The translations under genes and the position numbers were made by a program. From NCBI RefSeq assembly GCF_964204865.1, contig NC_135251.1:16306001-16370000 (forward strand): 64,000 nt of DNA. The letters are read 5' to 3'. The notes beneath the pieces are model-generated. The model was given only the letters and a program-made list of their open reading frames with translations. It was not told where the DNA came from and did not search any database. Shown here in pieces: positions 366-61,517 of this stretch (positions are counted from its first letter, which is position 1; every line of letters starts with the position of its first letter). This DNA comes from Styela clava. Taxonomy: Eukaryota.

Positions 366-3300
366 ATGTTTAAAAACTTGAAACAGAAAGTATCTACTGA
401 TCAAAAAGTTCGAACTCCACAGTCTGCCAATCGGGGTGATGCTTCAAGCACACCCACTGGTCGTACTGGAACATCTAGATTGCCACGACCATCCAATTCA
501 GCGCCACCCAGGCGATCCAATTCTGAGAGTTTGAATGGTGCCAATGGTGCAGCTACTAAACAAAATAATGAATCCATGGAATCACCAGATATTGTACAAC
601 AGGTGGGAAATATATCAGGTGATGTTTCTCCCAATCCTTCAAATCATGGAGAAACGGATCAAGCACAAAAAAGTGCTCAGATAGCTACTGAAGCTGAGAA
701 AAAAGTTCCATTTTTCAAGAGACTAGAATTTTTGACTCCTCTTAAAGATCAAGTTGCAAATAAACTTTCGGAAAGTAAGGAATCAATCAGTTCTCTCGTT
801 GACGAAGTTCGTGGCAATGTAACAGGTTCTTCCAATGAACGATCTAAACCGGATATTGTTGCACAAACTAACGATCGTCGGCGAAGTGATTCCATTTCAG
901 ATACAGAAGAAATATCAATGAATCGGAATGCTATTGATGTAAGTGCAATTCCCAAAGAACAACTATTTGCAAAAGTAATGAGACTGGAGAAAACTCTTCT
1001 TAAATATAGAGAAAGATATGCAGAACTTGCTTCTAATTTTCGTGAGGCGAAACAAGAAAGAGAAAAGTTGCAATCAGTTATGCAACAGACCCAAGATAAA
1101 AATCTACGCAGAATTCAGGAACTCAAAGAAGCCGCAGCGTTGGATTTGAAAGCCAAAATGCATCTCGAAGAGGAGTTTCGAGTTTCTCTGGAAGAAAAAG
1201 ATCAAATGATACAAGTGCTTCATACTCAAGTTGCAATTCTTAAAGATGATCCGCAGAAGTCTCCACCACCAGTACAAACTGAAACTGCTCAAGGCCAGGG
1301 AGATGATTCAAAGCTTCAAAAAAGGGTCAAAACCTTAGAAGAACAACTCAAATTTGCTAAAGATACTTGTGAAGGTCTAAGAAGCCAAGGTGATGCTTTA
1401 CAAGAACAACTTAGTGAGCGATTAGAAGAATTAGAAAACCTGAAAGATTCGAACGTTGCGGAAAAGTCGAAACTTATCAAACAATTGCGTGAAGCAAAAA
1501 ACGTTATTGAGAAAATTGAAGAGGACAAAGTCACTGCTGTTGCAGAGGCCAAACGACAAATGCATGAGATTCTTGAAGGTAAAGATATCGAAGTAGAATC
1601 CTTACATCAACAAGTCAAGAAACTGCAAATTGATCTTGATGAATTTAAAATGAAGAAAGAGCAACGGGAAAATTCTTTGTTGGAGGAACTTCAAAAGGCA
1701 GTTACTATTGGTAGAACAGCAGAAGCTCAAAGAGCTGATGCTTTATTGAAAACTGAAACTATACAGAAAGAAATGGAAGGCAGAATTACAAAGATTGAAG
1801 AAGAATTTGATGCGGAAAGAAAAACTTATGTTTCTGAGGTTTCACATGCAAAAGCTGATAATCTTGATATTAATGAGAAACTTGAAAATGTAATGAAAAA
1901 ACACAAAAGTGATTTAGAGGCTCATACAAAAATGCATGAAGTTGCATTGCAAGAACAAGCAAAGAAATATAAACTGGAATTGGATGAAAAAGAGAATCAA
2001 ATGAGATTAGCAATTGAGGAGAGAGAGCTGAATAAAATGGCTGCAGTCTCACAACAAGACACTGAAGCTCAGAATTTGTTGAAACAACTAGATACAGAGT
2101 TGGAGAATGTTCGTCAAAAAGTGGAAGAGCTTGAAAAGGCAAGAGTGGATGAGGCCAACAAACATGAAGAGGAAATTACCATTCTAAAAGACAATTTTCA
2201 AAAGGCGAGTGAAGAACATAAATTCGAACTTGACAGCCTTAAAAAATATCATGATGATCATATGACTTCGAAGGCTCAAGAGTTTTTAGAAAAATTCACA
2301 AATCAAAAGAAAAAGTTTGAAAACAAACTTCAAACAAAAGAATTGACATGGACTGAAAAGTTAGCAGAAGCTGAGAAATCATACTTACAAGAAGTTGACG
2401 ATTTGAAAACACAAGTAAATGAACAAGGTAAAGAGAGGAACGAACTTTTTCAGCAACAAGCAGAGAAGGTTTCCCAACTCGAAAAAGAAGTCACTCTGTT
2501 GAATTGTGATAGGGAAGCCTTAAGTATCAAATTTTCGCAAATAGAATCTAAACTTTTTGAAAGAGATACACAATTGAAGGATTCTTTAAACGAATTAGAA
2601 GAAATCAAAAACAGTGCAACTAAAGAAAAAGAAGATTTGAATTCGAATATTGAAGCAAAAGATAACATAATTAAAGAACTAAACAGTAAAATGGAAAACT
2701 TGCAGCAGGACTTTTCACAGAAAGAACAAGAAAGCTTACAGCAGAATGAAGTTTCTCATGGAGAACTTGAAACGTTGCAGGAAAATCTGAAAAATTTACA
2801 ATCTCAGAAACAGGAACTTGAACAAGCTTGCAATGCTGCTGAAGAGAAATTGAAACAAAGAGAACAGACAATGAAAAAACATGTCTTGGATATGGAGGAA
2901 AGCCATAAATCTGCAATCGGTGATTTATCATCACAGTTAGATAAAGAAAAACAGGAATCTGTGGTGAAAATTGCTACTTTAGAAAAAGAGAAATTGGATC
3001 TTCAGAAATTACAAGAAGAAACAAATAAGAAATTTCTTGAAGCTGGTGGAAGATTAAAAGCACTTGCCCAAAAATTTAAAGCCACTGTTAAAGAAAACCA
3101 GACGACTGTGACAGAGAAAGAATCTATGATTGAGAAGTCTAAAACGGAATTAAATGAAATCAAAATAAAATTAGAACAACTGGAAGGACAAAATAGAAAA
3201 ATGGTTGAAAATCATGAAATGCGATTGAAAACAATGGAGTCTGAATGGGAAAACAAACTGAAAAATGAATTAGAAGGCTTGAAGGAGAAATCTGAAAAAG

Positions 3301-61100: not shown

Positions 61101-61517
61101 AAGCATTGCCGAACTCCTTCATATATTTTTTGAGCCAACTATAAAAAGTCAAGGTTACTGAATTTTCTTATATTTTCAGCATGTGCGAAGGAGAGAAAAG
61201 AAAATTAAAAATACCGTCCGATCTTGGTAAGAATTTGCTTCACAAAAATTTATAAATCAACAATTAATAAAACACAAATAATGATATTTATATGCATTGC
61301 AGGGTATGGTGACCGTGGATCTCCACCAAAGATACCTGGTAAGTAAGGAGTCGCAGGCAGTCTTGAAAGGGTCAATGGAAAACATAATGTGAAAATCAGA
61401 TCAAATTTTAACAACTTGTTCAAGCTAAATAATCACAAGAGGTTTTTTGTTTTAGGTGGTGCCACGCTCATATTTGAGGTTGAACTTCTCAAAATCAAAG
61501 GAAAGTCTGAACTGTAG
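58196..61517 (+). CDS. FKBP2: ER peptidyl-prolyl isomerase FKBP2 (FKBP13); 5 exons
   Basis: Exons 58196-58363, 58978-59090, 61180-61226, 61303-61338, 61456-61517 (426 nt, 141 aa). Signal peptide; [77 protein letters not shown]-terminal KSEL ER-retention-like tetrapeptide. Confidence 0.93.
58740..58773. repeat. Perfect 17-bp tandem duplication
   Basis: (tgcttcaactctatgcg)x2 in FKBP2 intron 1. Confidence 0.8.
59839..60800. mobile_element. hAT non-autonomous element in FKBP2 intron 2
   Basis: TIR CAGGCCTGCACAAC / GTTGTGCAGGCCTG; perfect TSD CTGTACAC; subterminal GGGCCGC repeats. Confidence 0.9.

Follow-up and report, generated by a model that had tools for sequence, protein, structure and literature searches.

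A 64,000-nucleotide window of the Styela clava genome (positions 16306001-16370000 of contig C2) carries seven genes in three co-oriented clusters, and adjacent genes share a strand at all four within-cluster junctions. Four of these genes, GOLGA4, WASHC2, KLHDC4 and RPP21, are uninterrupted open reading frames (ORFs) that lie upstream of intron-bearing cluster mates. We analyzed this arrangement together with a candidate spliced leader (SL) of the same genome and with the retroelements that carry it. The coding sequences (CDSs) of the window are the following.

366-6479, + strand: GOLGA4-like CDS, uninterrupted ATG-to-stop ORF of 2037 amino acids (aa), first gene of cluster 1
9878-33667, + strand: RAB3GAP2 CDS, 28 exons and 27 introns by spliced alignment, cluster 1
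48926-47217, - strand: KLHDC4 CDS, uninterrupted ORF of 569 aa, first gene of cluster 2
46778-46266, - strand: RPP21 CDS, uninterrupted ORF of 170 aa, cluster 2, between KLHDC4 and IARS2
45662-35204, - strand: IARS2 CDS, 15 exons and 14 introns by spliced alignment, last gene of cluster 2
52475-56446, + strand: WASHC2 CDS, uninterrupted ORF of 1323 aa, first gene of cluster 3
58196-61517, + strand: FKBP2 CDS, 5 exons and 4 introns, 141 aa, cluster 3

The initial annotation of the window had reported the same four intronless CDSs, and 27, 14 and 4 introns in RAB3GAP2, IARS2 and FKBP2; the former were recovered as uninterrupted ATG-to-stop frames and the latter were reproduced by spliced alignment. 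Our own gene finder merges neighbouring genes and was used for exon detection only. The 28 exons of RAB3GAP2 reproduce all 1480 residues of the database protein P0121, and the 15 exons of IARS2 reproduce 891 of the 911 residues of P0122, the tail differing. All 27 and all 14 introns of these genes are of the GT..AG type, and the exons of both match S. clava proteins at 99-100%. The last IARS2 exon (35204-35485) continues into a Cys-rich tail that is absent from P0122 (911 aa) and brings the total to 991 aa.

The GOLGA4 assignment follows from a C-terminal GRIP domain that matches GOLGA4 in PDB (E 4.7e-10); the Pfam GRIP match of this ORF falls below the family cut-off, and the ESM Atlas gave only generic coiled-coil matches. 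The WASHC2 and KLHDC4 ORFs equal annotated proteins letter for letter; other members of their protein clusters bear the Styela clava names WASH complex subunit 2C-like and, for KLHDC4, kelch domain-containing 4-like. A Styela clava database entry shares 98% identity with the KLHDC4 protein. RPP21 was identified by the Pfam domain Rpr2 (E 1e-22), and its exact sequence had no entry in the protein collection searched by exact look-up. Intron-free CDSs of 6.1 kb (GOLGA4) and 4.0 kb (WASHC2) occur among neighbouring genes with 27 and 14 introns. The vertebrate orthologues of all four intronless genes are multi-exon.

The regions between the CDSs are as follows.

6480-9877, + strand: GOLGA4-RAB3GAP2 gap of 3398 bp, with AATAAA at 6639 and 7680 and an acceptor-like AG at 9874-9875
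46779-47216, - strand: KLHDC4-RPP21 gap of 438 bp, without AATAAA, bridged by one ungapped contig (45879-48935)
45663-46265, - strand: RPP21-IARS2 gap of 603 bp, covered by a contig running on into spliced IARS2
56447-58195, + strand: WASHC2-FKBP2 gap of 1749 bp, with AATAAA at 57353 and 57515 and an acceptor-like AG at 58185-58186
48927-52474, unstranded: repeat-rich divergent spacer between KLHDC4 and WASHC2, the presumed site of the promoters of clusters 2 and 3

The first AATAAA in the GOLGA4-RAB3GAP2 gap lies 160 nt past the GOLGA4 stop. An acceptor-like AG upstream of IARS2 (45867-45871) differs in two RNA-type runs, so it may be polymorphic and perhaps not the sole acceptor. Outside the window, the intronless genes NUDCD2 and KDM8 (83 bp apart; L101:6790-8509) are placed head to head with GOLGA4 at a distance of ~1.9 kb; both divergent spacers near the window are therefore flanked by intronless genes on both sides.

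Transcript evidence at the junctions was drawn, for the region 43500-63400, from the assembled contigs of three runs (X1-X3, from three studies), the RNA nature of which is a guess, and of one DNA-type run; a contig spanning two genes is not equivalent to a single transcript, and contigs cannot show transcript ends. The RNA-type contigs cover WASHC2, KLHDC4 and RPP21 gaplessly. WASHC2 is free of intron-sized gaps in all three RNA-type runs (starting at 52438, 52476 or 52444 and extending to 56772), while a single ungapped X2 contig runs from 48935 to 45879 through KLHDC4, RPP21 and both gaps and reaches the IARS2 leader. One X3 contig starts inside RPP21 (46294) and enters IARS2 with a 123-nt step that corresponds to exon 2. 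Across the WASHC2-FKBP2 gap, RNA-type contigs from the three studies leave only 56773-56935 uncovered; contig 56936-58362 reaches the end of FKBP2 exon 1, and its 143 further letters correspond to FKBP2 exon 2 plus 30. Two FKBP2 joints are present in all three RNA-type runs and absent from the DNA-type run. Altogether, RNA-type cover is seen at three of the four junctions (KLHDC4-RPP21, RPP21-IARS2 and WASHC2-FKBP2). Among protein-coding differences in the contigs (40 of 388 rows), 9 of 18 are synonymous and none introduces a stop, which is a weak proxy for dN/dS. The earlier argument that the intact ORFs mark functional genes rather than pseudogenes agrees with the intact frames and, for WASHC2, KLHDC4 and RPP21, with these contigs of presumed RNA origin.

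The initial annotation had also proposed a positional rule, by which only the 3'-most gene of a co-oriented cluster contains introns. We examined gene pairs in a sample of 1.44 Mb (0.4% of the genome) made up of 440 kb flanking the window, blocks at fixed offsets on C1, C3 and C6, and two blocks on C8 and C10 that were centred on intronless kelch matches, so that the sample favours intronless genes. Adjacent, co-oriented and non-paralogous genes with a CDS gap of at most 3.5 kb were counted (n=14), leaving out tandem paralogue arrays, transposon ORFs, gaps above 3.5 kb and FNTA-ATP6AP2, for which the gap is unresolved. Exact look-up was tried on 17 outside ORFs and verified 13 of them as intronless CDSs; others were accepted on a Pfam match or by eye, and several outside gene names were assigned by eye or Pfam domain. 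The 14 pairs are listed by the state of the upstream gene.

ALKBH4-GCSH, gap 1342 bp: upstream gene intronless
GCSH-succinyl-CoA ligase beta, gap 250 bp: upstream gene intronless
ARPIN-DDX31, gap 1115 bp: upstream gene intronless
NUDCD2-KDM8, gap 83 bp: upstream gene intronless
103-aa ORF (putative)-NOP2, overlapping: upstream ORF intronless
NOP2-KLHDC1, gap 1146 bp: upstream gene intronless
NEDD8-TRAPPC1, gap 62 bp: upstream gene intronless
ROPN1L-aldo-keto-reductase-like, gap 834 bp: upstream gene intronless
MRPS33 (1 intron)-RNF146 (at least 1 intron), L201:1349-3433, C2 ~16.247-16.249 Mb, gap 78 bp: upstream gene with intron
ETS-histone H1, gap ~1550 bp: upstream gene with introns
RNF139-like-ceramidase, gap ~2200 bp: upstream gene with introns
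REC114-ARPIN, gap 2283 bp: upstream gene with introns
succinyl-CoA ligase beta-lipase, gap 2422 bp: upstream gene with introns
SCYL1-TRIM45, gap 2563 bp: upstream gene with introns

The upstream gene is intronless in 8 of these 14 pairs, or in 8 of the 9 pairs below 1.4 kb compared with none of the 5 above (Fisher p 0.003, for a cut set with the data already in view). If roughly one third of genes are taken to be intronless as background, p is 0.0009 for 8/9 and 0.054 for 8/14. Our method detects pairs made up of two multi-exon genes less readily, hence the bias is probably overstated. The downstream gene is intronless too in four of the eight supporting pairs, and the DDX31-like gene (L199-L200) has a single 577-nt GT..AG intron and may be a retrogene with later intron gain or a case of near-complete intron loss; an intron-rich last gene is therefore not a general feature. 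Upstream intronlessness is a bias limited to tight pairs and not an absolute rule. The proposed rule fails outside the window, where the upstream gene contains at least one intron in 6 of the 14 close pairs, MRPS33 only 78 bp before RNF146 among them; what survives of the expected association between intron content and position is the tendency among tight pairs, with wider pairs showing none. Two further ORFs were noted in the sample. The 103-codon ORF overlapping the annotated NOP2 start (L215:655-966) has coding-like composition and no Pfam match, and a 352-aa ORF after the C8 kelch-like gene was dropped as LINE ORF1-like by eye (LINE, long interspersed nuclear element).

Single intronless copies would be expected if retrocopies had replaced their parent loci, as the initial annotation suggested. 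A genome search gave one match each for KLHDC4 (whole protein) and for GOLGA4, WASHC2 and RPP21 (N-terminal parts). No intron-bearing parent locus was found for any of the four in this search, in which an exon-by-exon comparison could overlook a strongly diverged parent with short exons. A metagenome scan retrieved the genomic contig L005 (L006 is the same DNA) with an uninterrupted 579-codon KLHDC4 frame. A 24-row tree contains a tunicate clade (100/100) in which this protein joins Phallusia and Clavelina (99/97) and stands apart from the window protein, which places L005, as judged from its sequence, in a tunicate outside the stolidobranchs.

The SL search started from a motif just before the GOLGA4 ATG, which we took to resemble an ascidian leader. 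The relevant features are the following.

347-362, + strand: acceptor-like AG (347-348), then an 11-nt exact SL match (352-362) 3 nt before the GOLGA4 ATG; possible relic SL
52438-52471, + strand: acceptor-like AG (52438-52439) and an 8-nt SL match (52464-52471) before WASHC2; weak
C8 ~4.23-4.57 Mb: candidate SL RNA gene tandem array (L100), often with a 1634-bp period

A genome search for the SL motif with a donor returned 168 matches compared with 10 for a control, and most of those listed fall in the C8 array. Each unit contains an upstream TATA-like box, a 24-nt exon, a GTAAGT donor, a hairpin and a U-rich motif, the U-run of which is presumably Sm-like. The candidate SL RNA gene had no match in Rfam. 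Judging from this organization, the genome appears to contain candidate SL RNA genes. Of 8400 random ATG flanks, 2 reach the score of the 11-nt GOLGA4 match, which was noticed post hoc, and 81 of 4268 flanks reach that of the 8-nt WASHC2 match. A relic SL as a general mark of intronless genes was rejected, since only GOLGA4 stands out, and none of 30 loci fetched for the SL core plus ATG opens a 100-codon ORF from that ATG. One RNA-type WASHC2 contig begins at the acceptor AG 52438 with 2 unaligned letters, a weak hint of SL addition. Contig ends were otherwise not taken as SL sites: most of the breaks are consistent with polymorphism, and the stretch of 30 unaligned letters at KLHDC4 48982 does not match an SL with AG as its last letters. 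A 9-nt match to the Styela SL was also seen before the MED22 ATG in L005.

Exact SL copies that are not followed by G occur at 220 dispersed sites, compared with none for the control. We examined 64 of these 220 copies and 12 loci from the SL-plus-donor search, and four repeat families account for most of them. Five locus pairs from two of the families form direct repeats of 238 or ~745 bp that are 99-100% identical, include the SL and resemble long terminal repeats (LTRs). Other copies head LINE-like elements with endonuclease or reverse transcriptase domains, inserted such that their 5' boundary coincides with the opening base of the full SL.

L113/L114, L122/L123, L129/L130, L111/L112 and L115/L116: pairs from LTR retrotransposon families, full SL inside both LTRs, at offset ~560 in the 745-bp and 89 in the 238-bp repeats
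L315, L318, L319, L332, L328 and others: LINE-like elements bounded 5' by the SL

The LINE pairs L315/L318 and L319/L332 are identical over 60 of 60 nt downstream of the SL and have no letters in common 5' of it. Such identity downstream of unrelated upstream sequences indicates that DNA copies of SL-capped RNA in this genome reach back to the first base of the transcript. The possibility that the dispersed copies are insertions into SL genes was discarded, as SL-gene flanks were found at 0 of 42 loci. A partial second SL lies just upstream of the full SL in some LINE-like elements (L317, L319). At C5:1574652-1578370, a tandem repeat of ~49-bp period with the SL core constitutes an SL-derived minisatellite, and similar short tandem SL copies occur in L096 and L339.

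Two properties of Ciona operons bear on the interpretation. Upstream mRNAs end at the G of the downstream acceptor, usually without AATAAA (Satou 2006, PMC1488885), so a copy in an outron would need neither a promoter nor a poly(A) signal; Ciona outrons average 438 bp according to PMC4691747. The three clusters are probably SL-resolved operons of the Ciona type, and their lead genes are probably orphan retrogenes. Under this explanation, the lead genes would be old retrocopies that replaced their parents and persisted because they had settled behind the promoter of a resident gene and ahead of its splice acceptor. In that position a copy would gain transcription immediately, with the acceptor serving both to terminate the upstream mRNA and to give the resident mRNA a new SL cap; 3'-end processing of the resident gene would sever any copy lying downstream. 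Such an asymmetry of landing would yield a pronounced preference for upstream positions, and several intronless genes in a row, without an absolute rule. Co-transcription, trans-splicing at the window acceptors, retro-origin and the landing site are what we infer. For the retro-replacement idea of the initial annotation, the single copies, the RNA-type contigs of WASHC2, KLHDC4 and RPP21, the reverse transcription of SL-capped RNA and the bias in 8 of 9 tight pairs are favourable, while no poly(A) tail, mapped SL junction or parent locus was seen.

Several observations weigh against this interpretation. Neither the GOLGA4-RAB3GAP2 gap (3398 bp) nor the WASHC2-FKBP2 gap (1749 bp) falls in the range of the bias, as both lie where 0 of 5 outside pairs show it, and both hold AATAAA. 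The four CDS gaps of the window contain no A-runs of at least 10, for which erosion is expected in old retrocopies. No SL junction on the seven window mRNAs appeared among the contig rows shown, which repeats dominated. Before the ATG, 0 of 21 independent intronless genes have an SL score of at least 9, and the mean score for these genes (5.74) does not differ significantly from that for 17 multi-exon genes (5.15; p 0.063 for 40 nt and p 0.34 for 120 nt). No host-gene retrocopy behind an intact SL was recognised in the 64 of 220 dispersed copies examined, with about six singletons unassigned. The conserved intronless genes RAD9A, PHGDH, CSTPP1 and MEAF6 had no close co-oriented neighbour that we could find. 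Finally, KLHDC4 of L005 is located 2 kb downstream of an intronless MED22 (L005:5324-9484), and neither RPP21 nor IARS2 was matched in the 1.5-2.7 kb that follow it in L005/L006. The introns of KLHDC4 were thus lost before the two lineages split, or twice, and its neighbours have changed since. The comparison of neighbours that the initial annotation advised shows, for KLHDC4, an intronless copy elsewhere as well; its intron loss need not coincide with landing at the window locus, and the claim that each gene lost its introns by landing where it now stands is not supported.

The alternatives that follow and the operon-retrogene reading are not mutually exclusive. Widely spaced pairs, GOLGA4-RAB3GAP2 above all, may be independent genes with their own promoters, the window pattern being partly chance in an intronless-rich genome. 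The long gap with an AATAAA shortly after the GOLGA4 stop agrees with this, as do the RNA-type cover seen at the other three junctions only and the presence of introns in the upstream gene of all 5 outside pairs spaced 1.4-3.5 kb apart. It is less easily reconciled with the WASHC2-FKBP2 gap, covered in three studies with one contig to the end of FKBP2 exon 1, or with the 438- and 603-bp gaps, which contigs bridge, and we regard it as unlikely overall.

A two-step assembly, in which introns were lost earlier and elsewhere by ancient retro-replacement and short intronless genes later moved upstream by DNA rearrangement or a second retroposition, is doubtful to a somewhat greater degree. The intronless KLHDC4 with a different neighbour in the non-stolidobranch contig and the abundance of solitary intronless conserved genes in the sample speak for it. 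However, it needs an added reason for upstream placement (8/9 tight pairs here, 60% in Ciona), and for some genes it differs from the retrogene explanation only in timing. In-place purging of introns through cDNA recombination, the presumed reason being that donors in upstream cistrons would be spliced in cis to the acceptor downstream and so prevent trans-splicing, finds some support in the preference of paired acceptors for cis-splicing (PMC1488885) and in the cDNA-mediated intron loss discussed for Oikopleura (PMC4122922), but is improbable given the intron that MRPS33 retains so close to RNF146, the ~40% of Ciona lead genes that retain introns (PMC2760879), loss that is total rather than partial over 4-6 kb, and the many intronless genes that are not lead genes.

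We would go beyond the operon-retrogene reading only tentatively. It is conceivable, yet not likely, that LINE-driven retroposition, inserting trans-spliced host mRNAs into outrons, gave rise to ascidian operons, with the 11-nt GOLGA4 match as a fossil and the SL-capped LINE and LTR elements as the living machinery. The candidate Styela SL, together with LINE insertions whose first base is that of the SL, opens the retro-landing explanation to testing.

Both the upstream bias and retro-replacement are already published for Ciona, and the window is a new instance of a published ascidian pattern. The Ciona survey of Satou 2008 (PMC2760879) gives a single-exon 5'-most gene for 790 of 1310 operons (60%), the significance of which its authors call unclear, and single-exon genes make up 38% in operons compared with 15% outside, bearing out the enrichment that the initial annotation had mentioned. 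PMC5408686 and PMC5803294 credit Kim et al. 2014 with reporting retro-replacement as an origin of intronless genes in tunicates; the word 'retro' is absent from the main text of PMC1488885 and PMC2760879. The accessible text of the S. clava genome paper (PMC7540406) contains neither 'operon' nor 'trans-splic', and a term search of the available portions of PMC13746493, PMC7986045, PMC3795323 and PMC1636649 turned up nothing on SLs or operons in stolidobranchs. In the titles and abstract openings surveyed, most subscription journals being outside the survey, nothing linked retroposition to operon rank in ascidians or described SL-headed retroelements in them. Our results extend the Ciona observation to a distant ascidian and present it as a bias limited to tight pairs. 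LINE-driven retroposition into outrons, if true, would answer the question of cause that the 2008 paper left open, and the SL-capped retroelements are a more unusual by-product than the bias itself.

Compared with known systems, the window most resembles the SL operons of Ciona intestinalis in its co-oriented unrelated housekeeping genes, in the acceptor-like AG before each ATG, in the genomic SL gene repeat and in the concentration of single-exon genes upstream (60% of 5'-most genes there, 8/9 tight pairs here). It differs in belonging to another ascidian, in CDS gaps of up to 3.4 kb and in being known here from gene structures and contigs; the <100 bp, and typically none, of Ciona operons is measured from the upstream mRNA 3' end to the downstream acceptor, and the 438-3398 bp of the window are distances between CDSs, three of the four covered by contigs. 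The lead genes are similar to the orphan retrogenes of Ciona (Kim et al. 2014) as single intronless functional copies with the parent absent. In contrast to the relic-SL retrogenes of dinoflagellates described in PMC12014239, intact SLs are found here on retroelements and not on host genes, and the relic is not general; as in that system, SL-bearing RNA has been copied into DNA, and GOLGA4 has its 11-nt SL match before the ATG.

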